IMG/VR virus record: IMGVR_UViG_3300045988_180316 | Direction: 5' to 3' (one strand) | DNA length: 37,769 nucleotides | Source of the DNA: a virus | Lineage: Duplodnaviria; Heunggongvirae; Uroviricota; Caudoviricetes | In this document: positions 224-36,260 of the stretch, piece after piece | How positions within the stretch are numbered: the stretch's first letter is position 1 | How the letters are laid out: every line of letters begins with the position of its first letter | The notes under the pieces: model-generated | Databases searched by the model: none | What the model was told of the DNA's origin: nothing | What the model saw: only the letters and a program-made list of their open reading frames with translations | Program-made: the position numbers and the translations under genes

Positions 224-299
224 CGCGGTGTGGAGCAGTTGGTAGCTCGCCAGGCTCATAACCTGGAGGTCGCATGTTCGAGTCCTGCCGCCGCAACCA
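224..299 (+). tRNA. tRNA-Met (anticodon CAT), initiator-like
   Basis: Cloverleaf read by hand: acceptor CGCGGTG/CGCCGCA, D-arm GAGC..GCTC, anticodon arm CCAGG-CTCATAA-CCTGG, T-arm GCATG-TTCGAGT-CCTGC, encoded CCA. The C1xA72 mismatch and A11:U24 are initiator hallmarks. It aligns position by position with E. coli tRNA-fMet. Confidence 0.9.
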
Positions 300-12501: not shown

Positions 12502-12710
12502 AAGCGGTGTAATGTCTGTGTTGAACGGTGTATAAACTGTGTATAGTCTGAATCGTCTGCTTTTGTACACTTGATAACCTTCGACCGGATGACCGTGTTG
12601 TCATCATCTACCAGCTGTCTTATTGATGTGTATGTATCGCCATGGGGCGAGGATTGACCCTGTAATCTCGAAGTGGGAGCAAACGACCCACGAAGAGATA
12701 TGTCTGTAAG

Positions 12711-21303: not shown

Positions 21304-22097
21304 GATTTTTGTTTTAATCGTTTGTCTAACTCGTCAGCCTCGCGAGCCTTGGCATCCAGTTCGGTGAGTGCTCGCCATACGTCAGAGTCTCTAATCTGCC
21401 CTTCTTTGGTGATGTCGCCGCCCGTGAGGGCACGGATCTGGGCGTTCATCGCCTCTATCATATCGTAGTCGCCATCAGCTGAAGCTGGCTTGAAGAGGTG
21501 TGGAAAACTTGTGGAAAAGTTTTGCTTGACCCACATGAACCACAGGAAGGCACCCATCACCTCGACTGGCGTACACTCGATATGTTCGGGTGGGTTGCCC
21601 TTGGCATCGAGATAGAGGTAGCGCATCATCTCTCTGAGCGGTGCGTCGCTCGACTGGTCTGACTGCAGAAACTGCTGGAAGTAGTTGTCGGCGATGAGGT
21701 AATGTTGAAATGGGTACTCGTGCAGCTCGATGTCGGCGGCTTGGAAAAGCCCGATATGATCGAGGCGGTTGTCTGCGCCCTTGCCGTCGAATATGTAGTC
21801 GAAGGCTTGGCAGAAGTCTTGCACTTGCCATAGCTGAAGGAAGAAGCGCACAGTCTTGCCACTGTCTAGCTGGGTTTGGCAGAGCCAGCCGTCTTTTTTC
21901 TCGTTGAGCACCTCGATGCCAGCGAAGCGAGCGAAGAGGTAGGTGCGCACCTGCCACTCTTGCCACCCTTGGGTGAGGAGGTAGAGCACGTAGCGCAGCT
22001 GGTCTTGGGTGAGCTCGCCCCAGGAGTGAGGCACGTGGAGGTTGAGCGTGCCGTCAGCCAGCAAAGAAGAAGGTTGTGTCGTCAGCATTGTTTTCAT
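21300..22097 (-). CDS. Hypothetical phage protein
   Basis: 265-aa ORF. Its start overlaps the upstream gene by 35-44 nt. Confidence 0.6.
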   Translation of the reverse strand: MKTMLTTQPSSLLADGTLNLHVPHSWGELTQDQLRYVLYLLTQGWQEWQVRTYLFARFAGIEVLNEKKDGWLCQTQLDSGKTVRFFLQLWQVQDFCQAFDYIFDGKGADNRLDHIGLFQAADIELHEYPFQHYLIADNYFQQFLQSDQSSDAPLREMMRYLYLDAKGNPPEHIECTPVEVMGAFLWFMWVKQNFSTSFPHLFKPASADGDYDMIEAMNAQIRALTGGDITKEGQIRDSDVWRALTELDAKAREADELDKRLKQKS

Positions 22098-22899
22098 AAG
22101 CTATATTGTGGCTAGCCTTGTAGGCGGTGGAATCTCTATATTTGGCGAAGTCATCGATGTTATCGTCTATGAGGGAGAGTAGGCTGAAGAAGAGTTTGTC
22201 TCTCGCCCTGAGGTCGATGGAATCGCCGTTTTTTGTGATATGGCACCCGATGAAATCGTAGATGCGCATGATGGCGACCCGATGGGAGGTGGTCGGGAAC
22301 TGAGCCTTGCGCTCCTCTTCGAGCAACTGGTCTATCTGTGCATCGGAGAGCTCTCGGCGCAGGAAGGTCTCGGCTTGGTCTATCTCGCCCTTGTGCGCCA
22401 CGAGGTCATCGAAGGTAAGCTTGCCGGGGATGCCGCAGAACTTGTTGAGGATGTATGGCGACCAAATGAAGGAGCGGATGGTGTTGAAGGCTTGCAAGCT
22501 GTCAGCCCAGCCCTCGACCTGTCGCAATCGGTTGATGACGTTGTGCAGGGCGTAGTCTCGCCTGTAGGCAAGCTCGTGCTCCATGGCATCGACACGAGCC
22601 TGTGAGGCTGGGGCGATGTTGTCGTTGGAGACCACCCCGAAGCCGTTGTCGGTCATGATGATGTCGTGGGAGTGGAGACTATCGAGGAAGGTGGCCAGTA
22701 TGACATAGTCTCTGGCGTAGCGCTGCAGGGGCGAGTCTTCGGTCGAGACCGCTTGCTCGGCATCTGCGCCCACGACGGTGGCGATAAGATCGTCAAAATG
22801 GTTCTCGAAGGATGGCTGCATCTTGGTGAAGACATCCTCGGAGGCTGCCGCCACGAATGGCAGCAGCTGCTCGAACTGGTTTATATCAATCTGTATCAT
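22054..22899 (-). CDS. Hypothetical phage protein downstream of the portal
   Basis: ATG at 22899 (MIQIDINQFEQLL...) is preferred. ATG 22941 is also possible but would overlap the portal by 56 nt. Confidence 0.6.
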   Translation of the reverse strand: MIQIDINQFEQLLPFVAAASEDVFTKMQPSFENHFDDLIATVVGADAEQAVSTEDSPLQRYARDYVILATFLDSLHSHDIIMTDNGFGVVSNDNIAPASQARVDAMEHELAYRRDYALHNVINRLRQVEGWADSLQAFNTIRSFIWSPYILNKFCGIPGKLTFDDLVAHKGEIDQAETFLRRELSDAQIDQLLEEERKAQFPTTSHRVAIMRIYDFIGCHITKNGDSIDLRARDKLFFSLLSLIDDNIDDFAKYRDSTAYKASHNIAYENNADDTTFFFAG

Positions 22900-24292
22900 C
22901 TTGTTGCTTTGATTTTGGGTTGTTGGAAACTTGCTTGGCATCCTTGTTCTCGTCGAGGGTGGTGAGCATGATGAGCGGCACGTCTGGATAGACCTTCTGC
23001 TCCCAGTGGTTGAAGTAGATGACCACCCAGTGAACGGTCTCCATGAGGTCGTGGAACGCCTTCTCTATCGACTGCTTGAGGGTGAAGAGCTCTCGCTTGT
23101 CTGAGCCAGAGTTGTTGGTTTGGCTCTTGCCCGGTGTGGCGCCCACGAGATTAGGGTGGATGTTGTCGGCATAACACTGCATGTTGTTGCTCTCGGCGAT
23201 GTCGTCGCTGTAGTCACCGCCATCCTTTGAGGTGTCGATGCGCGTGATGCGCACCATCTTTACCTCTTTGCCATCAGGTGTGGTGTAATAGCCCGCTATC
23301 CAGAGCTTGCCGCTATTCTCGATGCCTGAGATGAAGGAGCGGATTTTTTCTTTCTCCTTCAGCTTGCGCTCCTTTTGCTTTGCCTTGTCGGTGATGTGCT
23401 CCTCTTGGAAGATGCCACGCCAATAGTCGTTGTGTATCTCTACGAGGTATGGGATGGCGGCGTGGTTTTTGAGCTTCGCCATCTTGCCGATGGCGATGAG
23501 CCGGGAGATGTCGTACCACTTGTCTCGGAAGATGGCGCTGTAGTAGGGCACGGGGTAGTATTGGCTGCCAGGAGTAGGGAAGCGGGTCACGATGGCGAAG
23601 ACACGGTCATTGCACTTCGCGCCACCCGTCTGTCTGGTCAGGGTCTGTCCGCTTTGTCCGTCGAGCCCCATGCGCTGCTGCAGGTCGCCCAGTGGGTCTA
23701 GCTCGTCGAGGAGCGGCAGCACCTCGATGTTGTCGGGATTGACGGCATTGCGCCAGTTGGCATAGAGCACGTATTCGGAGCGACCGTTTTTGCTCTGGGT
23801 GAACCGACAGTAGCACGCCTCTTTGTGCCGTATGCCCACGATGCGATCGCCCTTTTTGTTGAGGATGATGGCTGAGACACAAAAGAAGAAGTACTTCATG
23901 TCTGTGATTTGCTCTAGGAAGAAGCGCGAGAGGTTGTTGTGCATCTTGAAGAGGTTGACCTCTTTGTCTTGTGTCGGAAGCTTTGTCTTGATGTCGTTGT
24001 ACTGGAAGCCCATGCCGTAGCAGGTGAGCACGTTGAAGAGCTTGTTTTGCGCCATCACGCTGCTCTCACCGATATTTTTGATGAGCTGGTAGGGCAGCTT
24101 GTTGTCTGCCCCGAAGGGGATGTAGGTGTATCGCTGCTTTCCCACCTCTACGGAGACGGTGGGTGTGGTACCATCATCATCGAAGATGGATGAGGACTCG
24201 ACGAAGCCGCTGGTGGGCGAGGAGGTCTGGTAATCGAGCACCTCGCCCATGGTTGCGTATGTGATGTTTATGTTATCGCTTTTGTCTGTCAT
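22886..24292 (-). CDS. Portal protein candidate
   Basis: 468 aa from ATG 24292 (MTDKSDNINITY...). The size and an acidic C-terminal tail fit a portal. No diagnostic motif was verified. Confidence 0.5.
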   Translation of the reverse strand: MTDKSDNINITYATMGEVLDYQTSSPTSGFVESSSIFDDDGTTPTVSVEVGKQRYTYIPFGADNKLPYQLIKNIGESSVMAQNKLFNVLTCYGMGFQYNDIKTKLPTQDKEVNLFKMHNNLSRFFLEQITDMKYFFFCVSAIILNKKGDRIVGIRHKEACYCRFTQSKNGRSEYVLYANWRNAVNPDNIEVLPLLDELDPLGDLQQRMGLDGQSGQTLTRQTGGAKCNDRVFAIVTRFPTPGSQYYPVPYYSAIFRDKWYDISRLIAIGKMAKLKNHAAIPYLVEIHNDYWRGIFQEEHITDKAKQKERKLKEKEKIRSFISGIENSGKLWIAGYYTTPDGKEVKMVRITRIDTSKDGGDYSDDIAESNNMQCYADNIHPNLVGATPGKSQTNNSGSDKRELFTLKQSIEKAFHDLMETVHWVVIYFNHWEQKVYPDVPLIMLTTLDENKDAKQVSNNPKSKQQDDTD

Positions 24293-24297
24293 AATTT

Positions 24298-24558
24298 TTA
24301 TAAGTATATTGAATGGTCGTTGTATCTGAAGATGAAGATGTCTCTCACCTTGCGTATCTGGTGGTTGACGGGATTGTAGAGGGTGTGGGTGCCATTCTGC
24401 CAGGATGAGGACTTGACGAGCCATCCCCGGTATTGGATGATGGAGCCGTCGCCGCCCTTCCAGCAGTCGATGTCAACGGTCGAGCGGTCGATGCGCGATA
24501 TGTCGAGGGCACGGCGCAGCTCGTTGATGTGTATTGCCTTGGGTGTCTTATCTGCCAT
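24298..24558 (-). CDS. Hypothetical small phage protein
   Basis: 86-aa ORF with an ATG start. Confidence 0.55.
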   Translation of the reverse strand: MADKTPKAIHINELRRALDISRIDRSTVDIDCWKGGDGSIIQYRGWLVKSSSWQNGTHTLYNPVNHQIRKVRDIFIFRYNDHSIYL

Positions 24559-24575
24559 ATATCTGAAGCTTTTGT

Positions 24576-25637
24576 TTAGTTGAACGTATCGTCGAAGGAG
24601 TCGTCGAAGATGCGACCGCCTGTGTTGCCGATGTTCTTGAACACGACATTCTGGACTCGCTGGGCATATTGGTAGCTGAAGGTGAACTCAGCCATGTCGT
24701 CCAGCTCGTTGGTGCGCTCGCTCTTGGAGTCGGTAAAGGTTATCTCTTTGTCCTGGGTGTAGTCACGGAACAGATAGATCTCATCGGAGCGCAGCAGGTC
24801 TTCGGCGAAGTGTGCCATGGACGGTGGGATAACGCCTGTGTCGCCCTCGAAGGTGCGGGTCTCTTTGACGGAGTAGTTGATCTTTTTGCCGCTGATGACG
24901 GCGCTCTTGCGCTCGAAGGTAGGTGCGATTTTCTTTTTGCCCAGGCAATAGAAGATCTCTTGGCACCCGAAGGAGTTGGTGAAGAGGAGCACCGGGTCGG
25001 CGACCGCCTCGGTATGGTCTATCTGGAAGTCTTGCACTCGCTTGCCCACGGTGACGGTGTAGGCGAAGAGGTCGCCACGGTCGGCATCGTAGTAACGGTC
25101 GGGCGAGACATCGAAGGTGGTGATGTTATTCACCGTATGGGTAGGGGTGGCATCGGCGGCGATATTGCCCTCCACGACCTTGCCGTCTTTGTAATATCGG
25201 GCTGTGACGGCGGCAGTGGTGCTGTCGGCACCTGCGGCATGGAGATATTCACGATGGCCGAGCTGTGTGAGCTTGGCACCATCGAGGAGGGTGAGGAAGT
25301 ATTGGTCGAGGAACGCCTGGCACGACATGTTGATGTCAACGGTGGCGTAGTAGGCGGTGAACTCGCACGACCAGTTGGCGACATCGCTCTCGCCATTGTG
25401 CTCGACAATCTTGATGGCGCACTTGGCGACCACGGTCGTGCGCACGGCATCGGAGATGAGCGTGCCGAGGTCGTAGATGGTGATGGTGCCAGCCACTGGG
25501 TAGTAAGTCTCGCTGAGCAGCTCTTCGCCCTCGCAGGTGATGGTAACGGTAGCGCGCTCGCCACCTATCTTGAAGGAGAAGGAGTCGAGCGCACTGGTGA
25601 ACAATGGCGAAGATGGTTGGTTGGTAACTGTAATCAT
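24576..25637 (-). CDS. Hypothetical phage structural protein
   Basis: 353-aa ORF, first gene after a terminator/promoter junction. Confidence 0.65.
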   Translation of the reverse strand: MITVTNQPSSPLFTSALDSFSFKIGGERATVTITCEGEELLSETYYPVAGTITIYDLGTLISDAVRTTVVAKCAIKIVEHNGESDVANWSCEFTAYYATVDINMSCQAFLDQYFLTLLDGAKLTQLGHREYLHAAGADSTTAAVTARYYKDGKVVEGNIAADATPTHTVNNITTFDVSPDRYYDADRGDLFAYTVTVGKRVQDFQIDHTEAVADPVLLFTNSFGCQEIFYCLGKKKIAPTFERKSAVISGKKINYSVKETRTFEGDTGVIPPSMAHFAEDLLRSDEIYLFRDYTQDKEITFTDSKSERTNELDDMAEFTFSYQYAQRVQNVVFKNIGNTGGRIFDDSFDDTFN

Positions 25638-25660
25638 ATCAATGTCTCATTAAAACGATG

Positions 25661-25668
25661 CAAAGATA
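25661..25668 (-). promoter_or_regulatory. -7 box (TAtcTTTG)
   Basis: Plus CAAAGATA lies 24 nt upstream of ATG 25637. Confidence 0.5.
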
Positions 25669-25682
25669 GGAAGGAAGGGGAG

Positions 25683-25722
25683 AAAATAAAAATACCTGAT
25701 TGTCATCACGACAACCAGGTAT
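25683..25722 (-). terminator. Rho-independent terminator
   Basis: 13-bp stem ATACCTGATTGTC (25692-25704) / GACAACCAGGTAT (25710-25722); the mismatch becomes a G-U pair on the minus strand. The loop is 5 nt and a U-run follows. Confidence 0.7.
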
Positions 25723-25810
25723 CGACTCATGGAGCTGACCACGCCTTGTTAAGCCTAAGGCTCCATTCCGAGACTGTTTTATGTTGTAAATGAAAAAAAA
25801 TGTATTTGCA

Positions 25811-26134
25811 TCATAATGGACTGCGCACGCCGTATTCCAGCTCCCAGACGAGACGACCACCACTTGGGCAAATCAGCTTGTAGCCATGTGCGACCATGTA
25901 TTCTGTAATGGTGGAGACGGAGGCTGTCACGATGTCTTTGATGTCGTCTTGTATCTCTTTTGATGTCATGACCTCTATCGGACCATCGCGCTCATCGGTT
26001 GGCGGGCGGTAGCCTTGGAAATAGGCATCGAGCGCCATATTGACGTAATCGACCTTAGTCTCTGGCTCTGGTGGTACAGCCGGGATGTCGGCTGTCACGT
26101 TGAAGCCCATGATGCGTTTGCGATTGTTGCTCAT
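25811..26134 (-). CDS. Hypothetical phage protein
   Basis: 107-aa ORF with an ATGA overlap with the upstream gene. Confidence 0.6.
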   Translation of the reverse strand: MSNNRKRIMGFNVTADIPAVPPEPETKVDYVNMALDAYFQGYRPPTDERDGPIEVMTSKEIQDDIKDIVTASVSTITEYMVAHGYKLICPSGGRLVWELEYGVRSPL

Positions 26135-26400
26135 GCCTCACCTCCTTTCGCCTCCAGGGCAATGTTGATGGTCTTGAAGAGCTTGCTCATGTGGTCGAAG
26201 TTATTGAGCATGAGCAGCACCCTGTCGGCACCGCCGAGGTCTTCGACGCAGTTGGTCACCACCTCGTCGGAGATGAGTACCTTTTTGACTTGCTCAAGGT
26301 ACTCGATGAAGTAGTTGAGCTGGTTGACATCCATCATATCTACGAGCGCATTCCAGACCTCTGCTGTCATGTGTATGTTTGTTGCGTTGTTTGTGTTCAT
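26131..26400 (-). CDS. Hypothetical phage protein
   Basis: 89-aa ORF with an ATGA overlap. Confidence 0.6.
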   Translation of the reverse strand: MNTNNATNIHMTAEVWNALVDMMDVNQLNYFIEYLEQVKKVLISDEVVTNCVEDLGGADRVLLMLNNFDHMSKLFKTINIALEAKGGEA

Positions 26401-26660
26401 GCTGCAATTCCTCCCATCAGATAACCACCAGCAATCATCACTACCGCGAAGCAGGCTATGCCCACCATGGTCAATGCCACCTCGCCATAAGTAACCGTCT
26501 CTTCGCAGAGGTAGCTGAAGGTCTCGCTCCTGGTAGCCATGAGGCGCTTAGCCTCACGCTTGATTGCACACTTGAGGGATTTCATTCCCTCGTTCACATT
26601 CACGTGGATGCCGGCAGGCTTAGCCTGCATCGCATCATTTAATAAAATAGAATTCTGCAT
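26397..26660 (-). CDS. Small protein with a C-terminal TM helix
   Basis: 87 aa ending ...VALTMVGIACFAVVMIAGGYLMGGIAA. ATG 26660 lies 4 nt after repeat element E3. Confidence 0.55.
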   Translation of the reverse strand: MQNSILLNDAMQAKPAGIHVNVNEGMKSLKCAIKREAKRLMATRSETFSYLCEETVTYGEVALTMVGIACFAVVMIAGGYLMGGIAA

Positions 26661-26664
26661 ATTG

Positions 26665-26680
26665 CATCATCTGTTAAGCA
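26665..26680 (-). repeat. Element E3 (RNA: UGCUUAACAGAUGAUG), abuts the start codon
   Basis: Perfect 16-nt reverse complement of 26732-26747. Confidence 0.8.
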
Positions 26681-26712
26681 TTAGCAGCCAACTTGATTTC
26701 GTGAGAAAAGGG

Positions 26713-26795
26713 TGGCGGCTGCATTCCCCGTTGCTTAACAGATGATGACTTATCCGAGAGGACTAATCAAAAATCTACGGTTCATGCAGCCGCCA
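26713..26795 (-). repeat. 12-bp perfect inverted repeat enclosing E2
   Basis: TGGCGGCTGCAT (26713-26724) pairs with ATGCAGCCGCCA (26784-26795). Confidence 0.8.
26732..26747 (-). repeat. Element E2 (RNA: CAUCAUCUGUUAAGCA)
   Basis: Complementary to both E3 (16 nt) and E1 (14 nt). Confidence 0.8.
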
Positions 26796-26844
26796 TATTG
26801 GTACACCTTTTTCCCGTTGCCGGGAAAATGATACTCTTGGGCAT

Positions 26845-26875
26845 AAAAAAAGCCTGCGGCTGAGAAGCCATAGGC
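26845..26875 (-). terminator. Intrinsic terminator inside the leader
   Basis: Minus strand reads GCCUAUGGCU-UCUC-AGCCGCAGGC (9 of 10 pairs) followed by U7. It lies about 45-70 nt after the predicted TSS. Confidence 0.6.
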
Positions 26876-26904
26876 GAAACGGTCGCCCTGCCGGATAGAT
26901 TACT

Positions 26905-26918
26905 ATCATCTGTTAAGC
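26905..26918 (-). repeat. Element E1 (RNA: GCUUAACAGAUGAU), at the predicted 5' end of the transcript
   Basis: 14-nt direct repeat of 26666-26679. Confidence 0.8.
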
Positions 26919-26923
26919 GTTGG

Positions 26924-26955
26924 CAAAGGTAAGAAGAAAATCCGGAACCGCCAAA
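26924..26955 (-). promoter_or_regulatory. Full Bacteroidota promoter (-33 TTTG, 20-nt spacer, -7 TAccTTTG)
   Basis: Plus CAAAGGTA at 26924-26931 and CAAA at 26952-26955. The -33 box is formed by the end of the upstream terminator's U-run. Confidence 0.6.
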
Positions 26956-26984
26956 AAAAAAGCGAGAAATTTTCATTCCTCGCT
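26952..26984 (-). terminator. Rho-independent terminator of the secreted-protein gene
   Basis: Minus strand reads AGCGAG-(12 nt)-CUCGCU followed by U9. Confidence 0.7.
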
Positions 26985-27017
26985 CAATTTTATTTTCAAA
27001 ACATGTTTAATAACATA

Positions 27018-27416
27018 TTATTGCTCATCTTTGGTAATTAACCCTGCTCGAATCTCATCATCGTTCTTCACTCTCTTCACCAGAACATAGTGGAGAACAG
27101 CCCTGCCGGCACCCTCTGTTATATAATATGTCTTGTCAAGTTTCCAACCTTTCTTAGCCATATAATTCACGGCTGCCATGACGGTATTGAACTTGATCTG
27201 TTTGCCATCCTCACCATATAAGCTCTCGAAAGAACCTCCACCATTGGAGACTGCACCCATATCAAGCATGACCTTCACTTTGCCGACGCCCCAAAAGTTA
27301 TATGCCTTGAGGTCGCAATAAACCGGATACTTACCATCCTCAGACTGGATGGTGCTCTGCGCTCTAGCGCCAATAGCCATAAAAATGATGGCCATCATAA
27401 CTAAAAACCTTTTCAT
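27018..27416 (-). CDS. Small secreted protein (signal peptide), moron
   Basis: 132 aa. MKRFLVMMAIIFMAIGARA-QS is an SPase I-type signal with no lipobox Cys. The gene has its own -7 box and terminator. Confidence 0.7.
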   Translation of the reverse strand: MKRFLVMMAIIFMAIGARAQSTIQSEDGKYPVYCDLKAYNFWGVGKVKVMLDMGAVSNGGGSFESLYGEDGKQIKFNTVMAAVNYMAKKGWKLDKTYYITEGAGRAVLHYVLVKRVKNDDEIRAGLITKDEQ

Positions 27417-27443
27417 TTTTTAATGTTTAAATTTAAATCGATA

Positions 27444-27451
27444 CAAAAATA
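27444..27451 (-). promoter_or_regulatory. -7 box (TAttTTTG)
   Basis: Plus CAAAAATA lies 28 nt upstream of ATG 27416. Confidence 0.4.
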
Positions 27452-27544
27452 ACAATAAAATATTAGTTATTCTAACCATTTTATCTGTATTTATATAAAA
27501 TCTGCTGGAAATATGTTGTAGAGCATAAAAACGAGGGACTTTGG

Positions 27545-27581
27545 GAAGAAAAAAGCCCCGATGCATCACGCACCGGGGCTT
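27545..27581 (-). terminator. Rho-independent terminator after hicB
   Basis: 8-bp stem AAGCCCCG (27553-27560) / CGGGGCTT (27574-27581) followed by a U-run on the minus strand. Confidence 0.65.
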
Positions 27582-27647
27582 CTAAAGCGATCTTTTAATT
27601 TTTAATTGCATGAAGTACAATCGGCATGAAGCCGATCGAACTGTTCT

Positions 27648-28073
27648 TTAAACATACTGTAGAACTGGTCTATCTATCAAGAGTCCAGTATCTATATCTC
27701 CTTTAACTTTTGCTATACCTTGTCTAATTTTCTCCAAGCTTTTGCCTTGTGGTACCTTGATGCCTGCTGCATATTGTCGAAGCAACGAGGCGTTCATGCC
27801 GATATACTTGGCGAAGGCTGAGATACTTAGAGGATAGTAGTTGAAAAATGCCCCAACATCGAAGACGAAGTGAAACTCCAAGTCTGGGTACTCCTTACCT
27901 TCCTCCTCATAGAATTCTCTCATTTCCTTATCTGCAATGAGGAAATCTTCCATAGCAGCCTTTGCGGTCTTGCCGTCACCAATAAGGCCAAACGTCAAGT
28001 CATCAGTCCCAGTCATGAAGCAAGAATATAAATCCTTGCCAGACTCCACTACAACAGTAACTTTTCTTGCCAT
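27648..28073 (-). CDS. hicB: HicB-family antitoxin (N-terminal HicB fold plus C-terminal HTH)
   Basis: 141 aa: MARKVTVVVESGKDLYSCFMTG...TAKAAMEDF... with a C-terminal HTH-like ISAFAKYIGMNASLLRQYAAG. It lies downstream of hicA. Confidence 0.75.
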   Translation of the reverse strand: MARKVTVVVESGKDLYSCFMTGTDDLTFGLIGDGKTAKAAMEDFLIADKEMREFYEEEGKEYPDLEFHFVFDVGAFFNYYPLSISAFAKYIGMNASLLRQYAAGIKVPQGKSLEKIRQGIAKVKGDIDTGLLIDRPVLQYV

Positions 28074-28149
28074 ATCTTTCTATATATAAAGTTCATAATC
28101 AAAAGTGTCCTTCTTGCATACCAAGAAAATCATGGAAGAAGAACCTGGG

Positions 28150-28332
28150 CTAAAGCCCAAGTTCTTGATAGATAGATTTCAGAGTGCGAATATTCACCTC
28201 TTCAGTTCCATGCCGAGGAACGGCAGTGCTCTTCCCATTGGCTGGGTTGAACCAAATGTCGTGTCGGCCTCCATGACGAAGTAGAAAGCATCCCGCTTTC
28301 TTTAACTTCCGATACAGTTCACTGTATTTCAT
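28150..28332 (-). CDS. hicA: HicA-family mRNA interferase toxin
   Basis: 60 aa from ATG 28332: MKYSELYRKLKKAGCFLLRHGGRHDIWFNPANGKSTAVPRHGTEEVNIRTLKSIYQELGL, the typical HicA pattern. The track start at 28407 lies upstream of the promoter. Confidence 0.85.
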   Translation of the reverse strand: MKYSELYRKLKKAGCFLLRHGGRHDIWFNPANGKSTAVPRHGTEEVNIRTLKSIYQELGL

Positions 28333-28376
28333 AATCTCAGTATGTTTAAAGAACACTTTGTCCTTATTGGACGATG

Positions 28377-28408
28377 CAAAGGTAACAATAAAGTTATAAA
28401 TAACCAAA
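28377..28408 (-). promoter_or_regulatory. Full Bacteroidota promoter for hicAB
   Basis: Plus CAAAGGTA at 28377-28384 and CAAA at 28405-28408, with a 20-nt spacer. Confidence 0.6.
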
Positions 28409-28530
28409 TATTTCGGTAACTATTTTGTTATATTACCTAAGATTTAACATTTATACATAAAGATAAGCGATGTCCCTACCTCTTTTAGGCTCTTGCCAGA
28501 CCGCTTTCGCCGCTAGGCGAAAAATTTTCA

Positions 28531-28561
28531 GAAAAATAGGGAAGGTCGAAAAACCTTCCCT
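28531..28561 (-). terminator. Rho-independent terminator after radC
   Basis: 9-bp stem AGGGAAGGT (28538-28546) / ACCTTCCCT (28553-28561) followed by a U-run on the minus strand. Confidence 0.7.
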
Positions 28562-28576
28562 TGTACCTATTATATA

Positions 28577-29263
28577 TTATAGCTTTCCCTTGTCGTGGTA
28601 GCTGTAGAAGCCATCCTCGGCTAAGATGATGTGGTCCATCAAGAAGAGTCTCATCACCTCGCACGCCTTGGCTATCTTCTGCGTGAGCATATCGTCCGCC
28701 TTGCTCGGCTGCGTGCTGTTCGATGGGTGGTTGTGCGCCACGGCGATGATGGTTGCGTTGTTGAGCACGGCTTCTTTCATTATCAGCCTTATGTCCACCG
28801 CTGTGTCGGTGATGCCTCCCTCGCTGAGCTTCACACTCTTTATCAGTCTGAAGTTTTGGTTCATCAGCACTACCCAAAAGCCCTCTGTCTCATTGCTTCC
28901 CATCATCGGGCGAAGATAGTTGTAGAGTGCTAGGCTGCTGCCTAGGTCGGTATTACGTGCCACCTTTTCCATTTGGTAGCGTCTGCCTAGCTCGATGGCT
29001 GCCTGTAGGGCTATCGCCTTGCAGTCGCCGATGCCTGGTACCACCTCTAGGTCTTCGATTCTCGCCTTGCCGATATTGCGAAGTGAGTTGTCCATGATGT
29101 TATAAATCTGTCGTGCCTGCTCTTGGCTGTCCTTGGTACCTGCCCCTCTGTTGATTACCAAAGAAATCAAGTCAACGTTGGTTAGGGTGTCGAAGCCTTG
29201 GTTATAGGCTCTGTACTGCGGTCTCTCCTCCATACAAAGGTCGTTATAATTTTGTCGTATCAT
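28577..29263 (-). CDS. radC: RadC-like JAB/MPN-domain protein
   Basis: 228 aa with an HhH-like GIGDCKAIALQAAIELGRR and a JAMM motif ...ATIIAVAHNHPSNSTQPSKADDMLT.... Confidence 0.85.
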   Translation of the reverse strand: MIRQNYNDLCMEERPQYRAYNQGFDTLTNVDLISLVINRGAGTKDSQEQARQIYNIMDNSLRNIGKARIEDLEVVPGIGDCKAIALQAAIELGRRYQMEKVARNTDLGSSLALYNYLRPMMGSNETEGFWVVLMNQNFRLIKSVKLSEGGITDTAVDIRLIMKEAVLNNATIIAVAHNHPSNSTQPSKADDMLTQKIAKACEVMRLFLMDHIILAEDGFYSYHDKGKL

Positions 29264-29279
29264 AGCTATATTGTTTTAA

Positions 29280-29804
29280 TTAGTTATACATTCTCTTGGT
29301 TCTCGCTAGGAACATCGCTCCCATCACTTGTGCGCCACATTCTGCTAGCTCGTTGGCGAACTCTCGGGCGGTCGCACCGCTTGTCACCACATCGTCGAAG
29401 ATGATGACTTTCTTTCCGTTGAAATACTCTCTATCGAGTGCCACTCTGTAGTCGAAGCTCTCGCACACTCTGTCGGCGCTGAAGTGCTTTGCCGTGCGCT
29501 CGCCATAGATGGAAATGTGCTCGCTTCCGTTCTGTACCTTTGCGCCTTGGCTCACCTTTTGGGCGAAGCGAGAAAAGCGCTTGTTGTACTTCTTGGAGTT
29601 GGCTGCTGGTGCGCATACCATCACGAAGTCGCTGGCTTTGTCGCCATAGGTGTTGACGAAAGAGCTGACCACCATATCGGCTGCGGCGTCTGTCGCCCAC
29701 TGCTTGCCATCCTTGAAAGCAAAGATGAAGTTTCTCACTTGCTCGGCTTGCGCTGAGCGGTCGAAACGCTTGGAGTTGTACTCGTAATAATTGAAAGTTT
29801 TCAT
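29280..29804 (-). CDS. ComF-like phosphoribosyltransferase (type I PRTase domain)
   Basis: 174 aa with the PRPP-binding loop GKKVIIFDDVVTSGATAREF. It lacks an N-terminal zinc finger. Its stop lies 16 nt upstream of the radC ATG. Confidence 0.75.
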   Translation of the reverse strand: MKTFNYYEYNSKRFDRSAQAEQVRNFIFAFKDGKQWATDAAADMVVSSFVNTYGDKASDFVMVCAPAANSKKYNKRFSRFAQKVSQGAKVQNGSEHISIYGERTAKHFSADRVCESFDYRVALDREYFNGKKVIIFDDVVTSGATAREFANELAECGAQVMGAMFLARTKRMYN

Positions 29805-30596
29805 ACGCTCAAAATTTTTATTCTAGCCAGAGGGAGGAAGGAGCTTTTTGTTTGAACTCGTCTTTGCCTGCCCGTCTGAGAGTTTTTTTTATTCTGTCCG
29901 TCGGTCGTTTTTGTCGCTTTTTACGGTGCGATGCAGACGAGCGGAGAAGAGGTATGAAAGCCAAGGAATTTTGCAAAAAGTTTATGGAAAACCGCCATCT
30001 CTGATTGCGGAAGGCTGCCGAAAAGTTTTTGGAAAATAGATTTATCGGTACTTGGTGCATACCATCCGCCGTACCTTTGCACCCGAAAAAGAGATAATGA
30101 CCGATGGATAACCGATAAAGGGAAAAGCTCTCGGACAGGAAAAGCGGGCAAAGAAAAGGCTCTGCCTTACCTTGGTGGTTAAGCCTTAGCGACGTTTGAG
30201 CGCCATCACGGTCACCACCGCTTGAAAATTCGCAAATTTTAACCCTAGCGTATGAAATGAAAGATGGAAAATTTGCGTCATCAAAAACACCATGTTTTTC
30301 AGACTTCAGGAGGAAAAACATACCTTGGAGCGATGAAATCGCAGCATTTGGCAGGCTTCGACCCCGAGGTTGAAGATGCCAAATGTGTCGTTTTACGACA
30401 GGTTTTCCACACCCACGGATTGGAAAACCCCGATTTTATCGTGGTTTTAGGGATTCAAAGGGAAAATAATTCCCCTTTGTCGGCGATAGCACCCCCCACC
30501 GCCCTACGCCCGAGGGCGCCTTCCGCCCCCTTGGAAAAGACGGAATATGTAAAAGACCGTTAACGTTTTTGTAGGAATGTAAAAAGCCAAAAGGCA
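29805..30596. other. 0.8-kb region without convincing coding potential; GGAAAA/TGGAAAA motif array; candidate large ncRNA or protein-binding array
   Basis: Only junk-like ORFs occur here. GGAAAA appears 9 times on the plus strand (29986, 30031, 30121, 30138, 30266, 30312, 30422, 30461, 30533), and 5 of these extend to TGGAAAA. One inverted copy forms the 9-bp hairpin GGTTTTCCA-N11-TGGAAAACC (30401-30429). Confidence 0.45.
30072..30079 (+). promoter_or_regulatory. Lone canonical -7 box (TAccTTTG) on the plus strand within the non-coding region
   Basis: TACCTTTG at 30072-30079. No good -33 box is present, and no minus-strand -7 box occurs anywhere in 29805-30700. Confidence 0.3.
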
Positions 30597-30633
30597 CGAA
30601 AAAAGGGAACACGCTTCGCAGCGCACTCCCCTT
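30597..30633 (-). terminator. Rho-independent terminator after terL
   Basis: Minus strand reads AAGGGGA..CGCU-GCGA(GNRA)-AGCG..UUCCCUU followed by U6. One pair is G-U only on the minus strand. Confidence 0.6.
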
Positions 30634-30701
30634 ATCGGCGGTCAAGCAAGAATGCCAGCCACCTAACTTATATAAGAATCGTACTATCTAAAGAAATCAA
30701 A

Positions 30702-32303
30702 CTATAGCATGGAACCCGTGGCGATGTAGCCATCAGCCTGAGGGTATTTCTCCATGCCAATCATGAGCGTGTCGTAGGCATCGGAGCCATCGGTGCGAGC
30801 CTCCAACTTATCCTCCTCGGTCTCTGCCAGCTTCTCGCCTCGCTTATCCTTCTTGCCGTTGTAGACCCCGGCCAGGCGGATGGAGATGAGCAGGTCTTCG
30901 TTGTTCTCGCTGTTGATCATCGAGCGATGCTCAGCCTTGCCGAGGAACATGCGGTTGAGCAGAAGCATCTTTTCGAGATGTCCCATCGGGTTGCCCAGAT
31001 AGACCTCGTTGACATACCAGCCATGGTCGGTGAGGTAGTCGGTGATGAAGGTATGGAAGTCATCGTTCATCAGGGCGTAGTTGTTGCCCACGAAGGTGGA
31101 GTCGTAGTAGAAGTTGACCTCCTTGCACCGATGGTACTCATAGTACTGCATGAACTTGTCGAGCAGGGCGGGCAGCTTCTCCTCATACTTCACGAAGATG
31201 CTCTTGAGGCAGCGTGCCTCGCCCCGCAGGTTGTCTTGTCCGACGGCTATCCAGTTGATGAGGGCGTTGGCATCGAAGGCGATGCAGAGCGGACGGTCGG
31301 GGTCAACGTCGGCATCCATTCTGGAATCTACATGCTTGAGCTTGTCGATGTCGTAGCCTAAGCCATCGAGGTAGGCGAGGTTGGGCGCCGTGTATAGGTT
31401 GGCATCCCTGAGGTTGGAGTAGAAGCCATCGAGCGAGATGGAAGGCCGCTTGCACATGATGGAGGTCTGGAAGGTGAGGGCAGGGAGGTCTCGCTTCATC
31501 TGCTTGATGAACTCCATGCCGAGCACCTCGATGTTATAGACCGATGAGTACTCTTTATAGAAGAGTGCCTTGGAGCGCAGTTGCGCCAGGAGCTGACCAA
31601 TCTCTCGGAGTCGGCGCTGGGCATAGCCTGAGACATGGCCCGAGGTCTTGATGCGGTTGCGTATGTCATACTCCTCTACCACGAGCGAGGCGATGGCGTC
31701 GATGAGCAGCTGGTCGCAGTCTTTCTTGTAGTTGAGGAACCAGGAGCCCTTCTTGGTCACGGGCATATCAGAGGTGATGAGCATGCCATGGTGGTAGTAG
31801 TGCTGGCCGAAGAGGTTGACGTTGCCTCGATTGGCAGGGAAGGTCTCGTCTTTGAGCTGTTCGAAGTTGATGAACTTCGCCTCGTCGATGTCGAGGTAGT
31901 CGAGCGAGAGGGAGTTGGAGGTACCCTTGCGGTCTTGCGAGATGATGGTACCGATGGAGCCGTTATAGAAAGAGATGGTGTTCTCCCAGTTGCTGGGCGG
32001 TATGACCGGGTCGGGCCATCCCAGTTTTTTGGGAGGCTTGACCCCGATGAGATAATGCTTGCCCCGGTGGAAGCCCCATCGCTCCCAGTGCTGAAGCATC
32101 GACGGTATGGTGTTGGTGAGGCATCGCTTGGTGTTGGCGGATACGAAGCCGCCGTTGCTGCCAGGCATGCGCTGCATGTTGCGCAGGTTGAAGGTGGCGT
32201 GGAGAATGCTCTTGCCGATGCCTCGACCGCCCACGACCACGTTGTCGCGGGCGGAGATGAGGTTGACCTCCATCTGGGCTGGGTTGAGATATTGATCTAT
32301 CAT
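30702..32303 (-). CDS. terL: Terminase large subunit
   Basis: 533 aa with Walker A VVVGGRGIGKS, Walker B-like LDYLDIDEAKF and a C-terminal nuclease-sized domain. Confidence 0.88.
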   Translation of the reverse strand: MIDQYLNPAQMEVNLISARDNVVVGGRGIGKSILHATFNLRNMQRMPGSNGGFVSANTKRCLTNTIPSMLQHWERWGFHRGKHYLIGVKPPKKLGWPDPVIPPSNWENTISFYNGSIGTIISQDRKGTSNSLSLDYLDIDEAKFINFEQLKDETFPANRGNVNLFGQHYYHHGMLITSDMPVTKKGSWFLNYKKDCDQLLIDAIASLVVEEYDIRNRIKTSGHVSGYAQRRLREIGQLLAQLRSKALFYKEYSSVYNIEVLGMEFIKQMKRDLPALTFQTSIMCKRPSISLDGFYSNLRDANLYTAPNLAYLDGLGYDIDKLKHVDSRMDADVDPDRPLCIAFDANALINWIAVGQDNLRGEARCLKSIFVKYEEKLPALLDKFMQYYEYHRCKEVNFYYDSTFVGNNYALMNDDFHTFITDYLTDHGWYVNEVYLGNPMGHLEKMLLLNRMFLGKAEHRSMINSENNEDLLISIRLAGVYNGKKDKRGEKLAETEEDKLEARTDGSDAYDTLMIGMEKYPQADGYIATGSML

Positions 32304-32929
32304 AGTGCTTTGTCCTCCTTGACTTCTTCTGTAGGTGTATATTCCAAGAGCTGTTCGTCGTAGTCCTCGGCCTCGATCTTGACGAGATCCATGGAGTTGT
32401 CGGTGTATTTCTTGACGAGCTTCTTGATGGTCTGCATCACGTTAGGGATGCGCTTGAGACCCAAGTGTCGTGGGTCGGTGGTAGGGATGAAGACCTGAGG
32501 CTGAATCTGGTCGTAGCCGTTGTCGGTAGGATCCTCTTTGTCGAGCAGGTGATATTTGCCGTATGCCGCTGCGGCGGCAGCCATGGCCCGGGCATCGCCC
32601 ACGGAGTCGGCCTTGTCGTAGGTGCGCTGTATCATCTGGTCGAAGCGATAGCGGGCGAAGTCTTTTGACACTTTTTGCAGGTTGCCCAATATGAGCTTGA
32701 TGAGGTGCAGGTCGTTGTAAGCCATCATGCGCTGCACCTTGTAGTCGTGCATATCTTTATAGACCAGCTCTTGGTCGCTCTTGCGAGGGTTGATGAGCCA
32801 CCAGGCATAGAGGGCACGGATGCGCAAAATGCGGTCGCGCACTGGGGCGGGCACATTTTGCGCATCCATCTCTTCGGGTGTGCGGTCCATCAGTTCGATG
32901 ATGGCATCGATGTTGGCGGGTTCTCTCAT
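32300..32929 (-). CDS. Putative terminase small subunit / packaging accessory
   Basis: 209 aa, translationally coupled (ATGA) to terL. The call rests on position only. Confidence 0.4.
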   Translation of the reverse strand: MREPANIDAIIELMDRTPEEMDAQNVPAPVRDRILRIRALYAWWLINPRKSDQELVYKDMHDYKVQRMMAYNDLHLIKLILGNLQKVSKDFARYRFDQMIQRTYDKADSVGDARAMAAAAAAYGKYHLLDKEDPTDNGYDQIQPQVFIPTTDPRHLGLKRIPNVMQTIKKLVKKYTDNSMDLVKIEAEDYDEQLLEYTPTEEVKEDKAL

Positions 32930-33207
32930 ATTCTAATCTCCTCTAACATTTGGTTCAGATATTCGTGTGTGCGCTGCACCGCCTGTGGCGAGCCAGCCGC
33001 AGCCAGGTCTAGCTCGTTTTTGCGTATCTGCTGGCGCACCGTCGCCATGCCCAAGTAATAGACACGGTGAAGCTCGGAGTCGGGCTTCAGTATCTCGTCA
33101 CGCAGATCGTCCTCGCTAATATCCAAAAGGACGGACATCTCGGATATCGGAGTCAACGTCTCCGCGAAGTCTTGCACTTTTTTGAGTAATTCCTGAGAAA
33201 TTTCCAT
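32926..33207 (-). CDS. Small HTH-like protein in the packaging operon
   Basis: 93 aa. TPISEMSVLLDISEDDLRDEI resembles an HTH. The start has an ATGA overlap with the downstream gene. Confidence 0.45.
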   Translation of the reverse strand: MEISQELLKKVQDFAETLTPISEMSVLLDISEDDLRDEILKPDSELHRVYYLGMATVRQQIRKNELDLAAAGSPQAVQRTHEYLNQMLEEIRI

Positions 33208-33691
33208 TGATTCTTAAGCTTTGAGTGTCACAATGTAGGGTATATCCGCCGAAGAGGTCGGCGAAGACCTGCGGGTCGGTGGTGATGATGGTTGACTCGT
33301 CTCGGCTGCCATAGGTCTGGTTTTGCGAGGTGACGACCGACACGACGTGCTGGTCGTTGCGGAAGAGTGTCACCTTGGAGTGGTTTTGCCCCAGGAACAC
33401 ATCGTCGAAGCAGGTCTGCATCATGCGCCACAGCTGCACGGTCTTCTTGCTCGCCTTGACATCGAGCAGCATCGTTGCCGACAGGATGCTGCCCGACTGG
33501 CGCATCAGGCGGAAGCCACGCAGGAACTCCTCGGAGGTGGAGTAGGAAGACACCCACACATCTGCAGGACCTATCTGGGAGAGAATCCACTTGATGAGAC
33601 CGAGGGTGTGGAGGTGTCGCCCGAAGTAGGCTTGCGTCTGGGCATCGGCGATGGGACGGAGCAGGTCACTGACCTTGACCTTGGTCGGCAT
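33116..33691 (-). CDS. HKD (phospholipase-D superfamily) nuclease-like protein
   Basis: 191 aa. NHSKVTLFRNDQHVVSVVTSQNQT resembles a single HxK...(G/T)SxN motif. The 3' end overlaps the next gene by 92 nt. Confidence 0.4.
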   Translation of the reverse strand: MPTKVKVSDLLRPIADAQTQAYFGRHLHTLGLIKWILSQIGPADVWVSSYSTSEEFLRGFRLMRQSGSILSATMLLDVKASKKTVQLWRMMQTCFDDVFLGQNHSKVTLFRNDQHVVSVVTSQNQTYGSRDESTIITTDPQVFADLFGGYTLHCDTQSLRINGNFSGITQKSARLRGDVDSDIRDVRPFGY

Positions 33692-34409
33692 TGGCGGCTA
33701 GCTTAGCCTTGGCTACACGGTCACGGTCGGCAGTGGTGACCTGGTATGAGTCGTAGGTGAGCATGTCGGCACGATAGCGCTTGTCGAGGTCGGAGAGTAT
33801 CTTGAGAAGCTCGTATCTGTCGCATGGCTCCTGGTGCTCCATCGTCTTGAGCGTCTCGAAGGTGGATTTAATCTGCTTGTATCGCTTGGCGTTGGCATCC
33901 CAGAGAGCGGCAACCTCGGCAGGAAGAAACTCATGGTCGCTGCGCTTGCCCTTGCGGATGACCGCCACGCCATCGCTCTCGGAGGAAGGAAGCTCGGCAT
34001 CATCGGTCGAGCCATCATCGTCGATGGAATCGGCATTTTTTGCGATTTCATTGCCATTTTCGTCGGTTTCATCGGTCTTTTTGGTCGTTTTCTCGGTCGT
34101 ATCGGTCGTTTCTTCGGTCGTTGCCACAGGTACGCCCTCACTGATGATGGCTTGCGCCTCTGGTATGACGATGGCATCCATCTGCTTGACCTCTTCGATG
34201 GTCATGCCATCGAGACGAATCTTCAGGAACTTATTCAGCTCATACTCAATGTTGGAACGATAAGCCTGTGGCTGTCGGGTGGCACGAGCATGGTAGAAGC
34301 GATTGCGGTTGAGACGGAAGAGCATGCCTGCGCCCTTGATGATGTCAGCGTCGCTCTCGTGCTTGGCATTGAGCCACGCCTGTATCTGTTTGGTGAATTG
34401 ATGATCCAT
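33666..34409 (-). CDS. Hypothetical protein with an acidic T/E/D-rich linker
   Basis: 247 aa from ATG 34409 (MDHQFTKQIQAWL...). The track start at 34649 overlaps the upstream gene and its terminator. Confidence 0.6.
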   Translation of the reverse strand: MDHQFTKQIQAWLNAKHESDADIIKGAGMLFRLNRNRFYHARATRQPQAYRSNIEYELNKFLKIRLDGMTIEEVKQMDAIVIPEAQAIISEGVPVATTEETTDTTEKTTKKTDETDENGNEIAKNADSIDDDGSTDDAELPSSESDGVAVIRKGKRSDHEFLPAEVAALWDANAKRYKQIKSTFETLKTMEHQEPCDRYELLKILSDLDKRYRADMLTYDSYQVTTADRDRVAKAKLAANADQGQGQ

Positions 34410-36259: not shown

Positions 36260-36260
36260 A

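Follow-up and report, generated by a model that had tools for sequence, protein, structure and literature searches.

We analysed a 37,769-nucleotide stretch of DNA from a tailed virus of the class Caudoviricetes (IMG/VR record IMGVR_UViG_3300045988_180316; hereafter the window), and in particular the interval between its gene for the large terminase subunit (TerL) and a downstream gene, g87. According to our analysis, with a probability of about 0.7, this interval is a slot that holds two exchangeable units of the moron type, the hicAB gene pair and a gene for a signal-peptide protein (SP132), beside a semi-core module in which a long hairpin precedes the genes for a phosphoribosyltransferase (PRTase) and RadC. 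The slot lies between the TerL terminator with an adjoining non-coding element, ncr1a, and the promoter and regulatory leader of the g87 operon, ncr2. It belongs to a temperate tailed phage family of Segatella/Prevotella.

The genes of the region are all encoded by the minus strand, in the same orientation as the morphogenesis genes. TerL (30702-32303) was identified by tblastn and by a weak match to PHROG 2, "terminase large subunit" (1.1e-4), and is 25-26% identical to the "terminase LSU" of Porphyromonas phages (down to 2e-22, tblastn). It is followed, after a spacer of 898 nt without a credible gene, by the genes for PRTase (29280-29804; 174 aa), RadC (28577-29263), HicA (28150-28332; 60 aa), a HicB-like protein (27648-28073; 141 aa) and SP132 (27018-27416; 132 aa, with a Sec-type signal peptide). 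Approximately 300 nt of non-coding DNA then lead to g87 (26397-26660), the first backbone gene past the slot, which was placed by the tblastn map and encodes a C-terminal membrane helix. A preliminary description of this DNA had read 27018-29804 as a self-contained accessory island between terminase and portal, framed by long structured non-coding regions. The features that it described are all present where it placed them, on the minus strand, and the island does begin directly after TerL; it is, however, separated by g87, g89, g107 and g353 from the portal gene g512 (22886-24424; 512 aa, 25.6% identical, 1e-22, to the portal of Polaribacter phage Leef_1). Both bounding regions proved to be non-coding and structured, but the left one (29805-30596) is a composite, consisting of the TerL terminator (30599-30631), ncr1a (30231-30598) and the PRTase-RadC hairpin (29805-30215), and neither is a mere border: both are conserved functional backbone or regulatory elements. 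A search of positions 26300-30800 against Rfam 15 (gathering threshold and E<=1) gave no match in the island or its borders, the only sub-threshold matches being to terminator segments in the models of the L20 leader, Spot_42 and asX2.

The evidence for a hotspot comes from the comparison of relatives. A back-translated TerL search recovered 72 IMG/VR viral contigs, 56 with a TerL 92-100% identical to that of the window and 16 with a TerL at approximately 52% identity; the proteins of the window were mapped onto them by tblastn, and all open reading frames (ORFs) between TerL and g87 were then clustered, which gave 66 comparable loci, 53 close and 13 distant (individual relatives are cited below by L numbers). 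Across these loci the interval varied from 2304 to 5760 bp and contained 40 distinct orders of credible genes, that of the window being found once. Because both length and gene order vary in this way, we regard the slot as a real site of cargo turnover, and the preliminary description, which had recommended such a comparison, was correct in its general reading of the locus as an accessory hotspot with morons. A point against our reading is that all the relatives used come from one host group and share descent within it, so that these counts are inflated. A megablast search with positions 22000-34000 against 50,697 phage records returned a single partial match.

HicA was present in 4/53 close and 6/13 distant loci, and SP132 in 15/53 and 3/13 (18/66 in total), always as the last cassette. 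In other loci these cassettes are replaced or joined by a three-gene cassette, c6-c7-c8, in which c8 is a DUF6941 protein (28 loci), by cassette c19 with a DUF2335 membrane protein, by a DUF5053 protein (33 copies), by a pair consisting of a SocA/Panacea antitoxin and a membrane protein, by a 338-aa protein matching the PADLOC candidate PDC-S02, or by HicA-HicB pairs of three sequence types; Prevotella merdae and further genomes carry yet other cargo in the same slot. The anchors are kept whatever the cargo. The expectation that defence-type genes would gather here was borne out by the SocA_Panacea and PDC-S02 cassettes, and, as a mapped site of cassette exchange, the locus readily supplies candidates for defence and anti-defence genes. 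The exchange itself would proceed by homologous recombination within the two anchors.

The cassettes share a promoter signal in their upstream regions. The window contains 38 copies of the Bacteroidota -7 box, TAnnTTTG, where 14.7 +/- 3.6 are expected, and on the coding strand this box precedes the first gene of c6 in 28/28 loci, of c19 in 15/15, of the HicA types in 17/17, of SP132 in 17/18 and of c49 in 4/4. The distance from box to ATG is mostly 35-65 nt, reaching approximately 140-230 nt in two families. Among the cassettes, PRTase is the only first gene without such a box.

Since the first genes of their cassettes carry -7 boxes of their own, the interpretation of hicAB and SP132 as classical morons is well supported: each unit has its own promoter box and its own terminator, and each is patchily present in collinear relatives. 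In the window the hicA box, TACCTTTG, lies at 28377-28384 (-), 45 nt before hicA, and the hicAB terminator, AGCCCCGGTGCGTGATGCATCGGGGCTTTTTT, was read from the sequence at 27549-27580 (-), where it aligned to the terminator part of Spot_42. The SP132 box, TATTTTTG, is at 27444-27451 (-), 28 nt before the gene, and an intrinsic terminator follows at 26960-26985 (-). The G+C content of this part of the slot is 0.38-0.43, against ~0.52-0.56 in the flanking genes. The promoters and terminators that the preliminary description took as the signature of morons are present for hicAB and SP132; PRTase-RadC has a terminator, but no conventional promoter. Because of their host-type -7 boxes and intrinsic terminators, hicAB and SP132 could be transcribed from the repressed prophage.

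HicA was assigned by Pfam (HicA_toxin PF07927, 1.1e-12; 48 bits against a cut-off of 27) and by PHROG 353, "toxin" (3e-17); a TTG at 28407 was considered as its start and replaced by the ATG at 28332. The HicB-like protein had no Pfam, NCBIfam or PDB match. Its homologues are named "HicB" or "HTH transcriptional regulator" at NCBI, and two of them carry PF01381; it has a putative C-terminal helix-turn-helix and keeps its place behind hicA in three sequence types of the pair. The two proteins would most likely act as a type II toxin-antitoxin pair, giving stabilisation or protection of the abortive-infection type. An 84%-identical hicB was found between mannosidase and lipase genes in a non-phage chromosomal contig (L088:5560-6430; GCA_977044075.1), with the same promoter sequence as in the window and with hicA deleted, leaving an orphan antitoxin; the hicB cassette therefore moves as a unit. 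The N-terminus of SP132, MKRFLVMMAIIFMAIGARA/QS, reads as a Sec signal peptide, after which ~110 aa remain. Sequence searches with this family found no Pfam, PHROG, PADLOC, NCBIfam or PDB match, its only homologues being close ones (>=73% identity), none with a Pfam domain, and its AlphaFold2 (AF2) model was unusable, with a predicted local distance difference test (pLDDT) score of 47. SP132 is probably a secreted or periplasmic protein, perhaps active in surface modification or exclusion.

The left anchor begins with the TerL terminator (30599-30631, minus strand), which consists of GGGGAGTGCGCTGCGAAGCGTGTTCCC and a T-run directly after TerL and is kept in all loci of the close clade with compensatory changes in the stem (for example, GGGGAGTTCGCAGCGATGCGGACTCCCC in L028). 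The adjoining ncr1a (30231-30598) is a structured non-coding backbone element, recognised by nucleotide conservation and folding. Every locus of the 92-100% TerL clade has it, at 70-98% nucleotide identity and whether PRTase-RadC is present or absent, and it ends in an invariant GTTAAAATTTGCG (30231-30243), at which homology between loci with different cargo breaks. Its folding z-scores are -4.6 on the minus and -5.8 on the plus strand, and it includes a self-complementary part of ~150 nt; no convincing structure emerged when a consensus of ncr1a was folded across clades. A core of ~180 nt recurs in the 52% TerL clade, where it lies after RadC, not before PRTase, so that the fast-changing slot begins at ncr1a in both clades. 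A 99-aa ORF on the plus strand (30264-30563) was rejected as non-coding, as its substitutions (596/518/617) are spread over the three codon positions without bias and most variants interrupt it. This ORF and a 167-aa ORF in the neighbouring hairpin are artefacts of conserved structured sequence, both of which gene callers are likely to annotate. At the other end of the slot, a conserved stretch of ~300-480 nt, absent from the window, lies upstream of SP132 or g87 in L018, L026, L032, L044 and others (16-19 loci); its ORFs, which differ in length (clusters c14 and c3), are all spurious, and it may be another conserved non-coding linker.

PRTase-RadC behaves differently from the other cargo. Among the close loci 34/53 have it, and among the distant ones 12-13/13; it is invariably the unit next to TerL and is thus only weakly patchy, being largely conserved. 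The order TerL-gap-PRTase-RadC is kept both where TerL is 56% identical and where it is 27-28% identical (L074-L077; PRTase 49%, RadC 46%), and a more distant contig, L096, keeps gap-PRTase-RadC (PRTase 39%, RadC 52%) behind a gene for 562 aa that tblastn did not match to TerL. Because its position after TerL is retained even where TerL is only 27-56% identical, PRTase-RadC is an old semi-core module and, unlike hicAB and SP132, not cargo of fast turnover. In the 52% TerL clade the PRTase stop codon overlaps the RadC start. The intrinsic terminator of the unit, at 28538-28561 (-), has a stem of 10 bp and then ATTTTTCT. Besides being conserved, the module also decays: RadC remnants that lack a PRTase were observed as a 40-aa fragment in L004 (12119-12241) and as a truncated gene of 194 aa in L066 and L067 (11727-12332).

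The second gene of the module, in an operon with PRTase, was assigned by its matches to Pfam RadC (PF04002, 9e-36) and UPF0758_N (6e-12; the N-terminal UPF0758/HhH region), to TIGR00608 at 149.9 bits, over its cut-off, and to PDB 2qlc (2.3e-14); the JAMM metal motif HxHx7Sx2D is intact (AHNHPSNSTQPSKAD). PRTase matched Pribosyltran (PF00156, 6.5e-7) and, among the PADLOC models, ShosT (3.9e-10, residues 30-171) and PsyrT (2.6e-8), with an invariant and intact phosphoribosyl pyrophosphate (PRPP) loop, VIIFDDVVTSGAT. Its AF2 model (pLDDT 91) has a type-I PRTase fold with no close solved relative, and Foldseek returned the generic PRTase fold, with ComF at rank 5. A full HMMER scan yielded 1574 library relatives, many of which are C-terminal domains of proteins of 500-1000 aa. 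These matches place PRTase in the ComF/ShosT/PsyrT clade.

The partners of its relatives suggest how the two genes may work together. In L078 and L084 the PRTase is coupled to a YpsA-SLOG protein, with overlapping stop and start codons; in L097 a small DprA/YAcAr protein starts 5 nt after PRTase; and a 415-aa relative in L087 has a full DprA partner, which is the ShosTA architecture. Because the PRTase of these relatives pairs with DprA or SLOG proteins where RadC stands here, the most economical reading is that PRTase-RadC would be a ShosTA-like two-gene module for nucleotide and DNA processing, with RadC in the position of DprA. The module does not qualify as ShosTA itself, since it differs in its partner and in the size of the toxin: RadC (PF04002) takes the place of the partner and no DprA-like ShosA is present, DprA and YpsA being found only with more distant relatives. 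Several points weigh against the likeness as well. PRTase has 174 aa against 432 aa for ShosT, its match to the PDB ShosT sequence is weak (E 0.1), ShosT was absent from the top 50 Foldseek hits, so that an identity with ShosT by structure was rejected, and RadC is a protein without demonstrated antitoxin or DNA-processing activity (PMC5512222).

A serious alternative, though one with the odds somewhat against it, is that PRTase-RadC is an establishment or anti-defence module for the incoming element and not a ShosTA-like defence of the lysogen. RadC and ComF-like PRTases have been listed among the conflict proteins of phages and conjugative elements by Iyer et al. 2017 (PMC5512222), and Frpo-type promoters, to which the hairpin discussed below is compared, drive anti-defence genes (PMC11541004). 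Furthermore, RadC, SSB and this PRTase family co-occur in a Bacteroidaceae locus resembling an integrative and conjugative element (ICE), and the long conservation of the module in the phage backbone suits a function beneficial to the phage. However, the best model matches of PRTase are the defence toxins ShosT and PsyrT, and its relatives pair with DprA-like proteins exactly as in ShosTA. The module may serve either defence or establishment.

The region between ncr1a and PRTase forms a rod-like hairpin of ~400 nt (29805-30215) on the plus strand, which is the template strand of PRTase, as indicated by folding and covariation; its sequence occurs only together with PRTase-RadC. Folded as RNA, the plus strand gives one long rod with a minimum free energy (MFE) of -160.2 kcal/mol (z -7.6), against -113.6 (z -2.6) for the minus strand, and with DNA parameters the plus strand gives -74.3 (z -5.7). 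An nhmmer search recovered the hairpin sequence upstream of PRTase in L074-L077, despite a PRTase identity of only 49%. The corresponding ~440 nt of the 52% clade show no sequence similarity and yet are equally stable (MFE -137 to -165; their z-scores, from 16 mononucleotide shuffles each, are rough). In an alignment of 14 sequences, 94.9% of cells were paired, and there were 20 double-sided pair changes; shuffles gave 12.8 +/- 1.8 (0/500), and sliding the partners gave at most 6. The consensus helices contain 219 G.U cells against 26 A.C cells, and for this reason the plus strand was taken as the folding strand. A 167-aa ORF inside the hairpin (29818-30321, minus strand) has no family matches and was rejected as non-coding.

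The promoter signals before PRTase are arranged unusually. On the coding strand, 0/35 loci have TAnnTTTG closer than 300 nt to PRTase; on the template strand, 34/35 have it. In the window this template-strand box, again TACCTTTG, lies at 30072-30079 (+), in an internal loop of the far (3') arm. A single TAnnTT[TC]G box, 263-304 nt from the ATG, was found in 20/20 PRTase-RadC modules of three deep clades, and also in L096; it lies in an internal loop of 4-7 nt with 1-4 of its 8 bases paired, oriented toward the base of the hairpin and PRTase, and the position on the template that faces the predicted start is ~110-135 nt before the PRTase ATG. The near-consensus GTTAAAATTTGCG was considered as a PRTase promoter and is not specific to PRTase, because it is invariant also before other cargo that has a promoter of its own; it may nevertheless serve PRTase. 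A plus-strand box at 29535-29542, inside the PRTase gene, was considered as the promoter of a hairpin RNA and is not conserved.

Based on this geometry, the hairpin and its template-strand box may be a promoter of the Frpo type for PRTase-RadC, that is, one that acts in single-stranded DNA (ssDNA); we offer this reading tentatively, as its chances are somewhat short of even. PRTase-RadC would then be on when the plus strand is single-stranded and silent in the duplex DNA of the prophage. Several observations speak against it. The choice of the folding strand leans on helices predicted on that same strand, the box in L074-L077 is TAnnTTCG, with one mismatch to the consensus, and the -33 element is weak and irregularly spaced (TTG-N17 in one clade, TTTG-N13 in another). 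Moreover, the DNA that a tailed phage delivers is duplex, which leaves no obvious occasion for an ssDNA promoter to act.

It is also conceivable, though rather unlikely, that the plus strand encodes a structured RNA, either an antisense or antitoxin-like control of PRTase-RadC or a stand-alone non-coding RNA, and that TAnnTTTG is its duplex promoter. The far better folding of the plus strand with its many G.U pairs, the covariation of the helices and the consensus -7 box on the plus strand, which would be active in duplex DNA, all agree with such an RNA. But a transcript that starts from the box in the far arm would lack the near arm, so that the conserved rod could not form; no conserved plus-strand promoter able to transcribe the whole hairpin was found upstream of it; PRTase would be left promoterless; and G.T wobbles also stabilise folded ssDNA, so that the strand asymmetry does not separate RNA from DNA. 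The ssDNA promoter is thus the reading that we prefer. In the ICE-like locus of a Bacteroidaceae metagenome-assembled genome (MAG; L078:4894-5917), which contains RadC, SSB, DUF2958 and PRTase with YpsA, the intergenic regions before ssb and its neighbour carry TAnnTTTG on the template strand only and fold slightly better there; hairpin promoters of this type may be common in conjugative elements of Bacteroidota.

If the hairpin is an ssDNA promoter, control of the Frpo type would extend to the promoter chemistry of Bacteroidota and to a tailed phage, and RadC would gain its first testable functional context, as the partner of a ShosT-like PRTase. One would then also have to ask at what stage phage DNA becomes single-stranded in the cell.

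The right anchor, ncr2 (26661-26931, minus strand), consists of the promoter and a structured leader of ~260 nt of the g87 operon. Its -7 box (TAnnTTTG, 26924-26931) is followed by three copies of a 14-nt motif, all given by their positions on the minus strand: copy 1 at the 5' end of the leader (26905-26918), copy 2, inverted, at 26733-26746, and copy 3, direct, at 26666-26679, ending 5 nt before the g87 ATG. An intrinsic terminator stands between copies 1 and 2 (26844-26875, minus strand), and small hairpins and a long-range 12-bp helix complete the leader. In 70/87 loci, the 52% TerL clade included, ncr2 shows 77-96% nucleotide identity, far above that of the neighbouring proteins.

A change in one copy is accompanied by changes in the other two. 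A position shows as many as three pair types, and G.U wobbles occur in both of the alternative helices, that is, in the pairings of copy 2 with copy 1 or with copy 3. Of the cells, 98.5% are paired in either helix, and the number of double-change cells is 109-135, against 26-33 in shuffles (0/500) and at most 25 when the partners were slid. Folding of the single sequence 26655-26922 recovers both pairings, copy 2 with copy 3 in the MFE structure and copy 1 with copy 2 in the centroid (z -4.36). Covariation thus shows that the leader holds two mutually exclusive helices. We infer from this arrangement that ncr2 is a control element of the late operon and a candidate for a new RNA switch of phage late genes: a terminator stands early after the promoter, and a later segment would have two possible partners, the 5' end of the leader and the region next to the start codon of g87, so that the bistable leader would expose or sequester the start region of g87 and gate the downstream head genes. 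We know of no described mechanism of late-gene control in Bacteroidota phages, for which the g87 leader is a well-supported new structured RNA candidate.

A three-copy motif could in principle be a protein-binding site, and this weighs against the switch. In that case the three covarying 14-nt motifs would be the sites of a DNA-binding regulator of the phage, co-evolving with the protein, and not RNA helices. Two direct copies and one inverted copy that change in concert are also typical of operator families, and copy 1 has an operator-like position just downstream of the -7 box. We nevertheless regard this as improbable: there are at least 10 motif variants among closely related phages, both alternative helices contain G.U wobbles, another five helices in this leader either covary or stay paired, and single-sequence folding recovers both alternative pairings (z -4.4).

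That the whole block is fixed late-gene content, universally conserved and co-transcribed with the structural genes, is very improbable. In its favour, PRTase-RadC keeps its place after TerL in most relatives, very distant ones included, and all genes of the block share the orientation of the morphogenesis genes. Against it, most loci lack hicAB and SP132 and have unrelated cassettes in their stead, which refutes this reading for both, PRTase-RadC is missing from 19/53 close relatives and has decayed in L004 and L066/L067, and conserved terminators follow TerL and each unit. Universal conservation at the locus, named in the preliminary description as the observation that would overturn it, applies in part to PRTase-RadC and not to hicAB and SP132, which come and go; as a whole, its interpretation was partly supported, and the feature that it pointed to is real.

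The two borders can be combined into a bolder proposal, namely that a Bacteroidota ssDNA promoter of the Frpo type in the backbone of a tailed prophage controls a RadC-based counterpart of ShosTA, and that the g87 leader represents a new class of three-way RNA switch for late genes. Taken together we consider this doubtful. If it is true, a part of a double-stranded DNA (dsDNA) phage genome is read only when it is single-stranded, and the candidate moments would be conjugative or other ssDNA transfer of the prophage, resection of the injected DNA, and replication.

The window is a prophage. A tRNA gene (224-296, plus strand) and a gene for a tyrosine integrase (416-1579, plus strand) both lie at the left end, which is probably the attachment end of the prophage, and other phage genes encode a minor-tail/tape-measure protein, an amidase and a ClpP-like protease. 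Among genome records, a Segatella copri MAG (L073) is the closest to the window. The human gut bacterium Segatella (Prevotella) copri is dominant there and difficult to study; to our knowledge, its prophages are almost uncharacterised. Upstream of the terminase genes, at 35156-37286 on the minus strand, lie the gene of the ClpP-like protease (36261-37286) and a gene for 367 aa; with the portal downstream of the island, head-related genes apparently flank the terminase on either side, an unusual arrangement. Elsewhere in the window, a full-length match to the Rfam RT-17 RNA was found at 12553-12654 on the minus strand (59.4 bits against a gathering score of 40.4). It adjoins upstream, and overlaps the start of, a 547-aa ORF (10927-12570) with no Pfam match. 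The RT-17 motif takes its name from its association with reverse transcriptases; no reverse-transcriptase domain was found in the 30 ORFs of the window scanned against Pfam, and the motif seems to stand here without a reverse transcriptase.

Compared with known systems, the slot resembles the morons of lambdoid/HK97 phages and the defence hotspots that Rousset et al. reportedly described for P2/P4 in 2022. As in these, promoter-gene-terminator units stand between morphogenesis genes and vary among collinear relatives, and the cargo has a lower G+C content and is of the toxin-antitoxin or defence type. Unlike known morons, those of the window occur in a host group that uses Bacteroidota -7/-33 promoters, in a slot framed by two long conserved structured non-coding elements and with a resident semi-core unit, PRTase-RadC, that lacks a promoter of the moron type.

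ShosTA is a type IV toxin-antitoxin anti-phage system (PMC11961720, PMC12961424). PRTase-RadC shares with it a first gene for a predicted PRPP-binding PRTase, assigned to the same hidden Markov model clade, a second gene from the competence and DNA-processing set, and the tight coupling of the two, and the nearer relatives of PRTase pair with DprA or YpsA-SLOG proteins. It differs in its RadC partner, which has the JAMM fold, in the absence of the N-terminal part of ShosT from PRTase, and in its position in a phage backbone behind a long hairpin.

Frpo and ssi sequences are ssDNA promoters of the leading regions of conjugative plasmids (Masai and Arai 1997; PMC11541004; PMC6294495). Like them, the PRTase hairpin is long and imperfect, measures a few hundred nt and lies directly upstream of genes of the establishment or anti-defence type, and its structure is supported by stability and covariation and folds best on the template strand. 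Its -7 box lies on the arm that would mimic the non-template strand and is aimed at PRTase, with a -33-like TTG/TTTG motif at irregular spacing, and no conventional duplex promoter was found; the likeness is one of geometry. In contrast to Frpo and ssi, the motif is the Bacteroidota -7 box TAnnTTTG and not a -35/-10 pair, and the hairpin is found in a tailed dsDNA prophage with TerL, portal, tail genes, integrase and tRNA, and not beside an origin of transfer (oriT); the context of ssDNA entry, a leading region by oriT, was not found, and no transfer genes were seen in the window.

Late-operon leaders with a promoter-proximal terminator are represented by lambda pR'-tR'/6S with Q antitermination, and cis-acting leader switches by attenuators and RNAs of the put/EAR type. 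The g87 leader matches no Rfam family and, unlike these known leaders, has a long-range design of three copies spanning ~250 nt; as in lambda pR'-tR', its terminator lies within ~80 nt of a promoter that heads a long morphogenesis operon, and, as in the leader switches, its helices exclude one another and one of them covers the region where translation starts. Overall, as a hotspot the locus is of an ordinary kind, from a phage group about which little is known. The new variants are its hairpin-PRTase-RadC module and its leader switch, and its borders are the parts of greatest interest.

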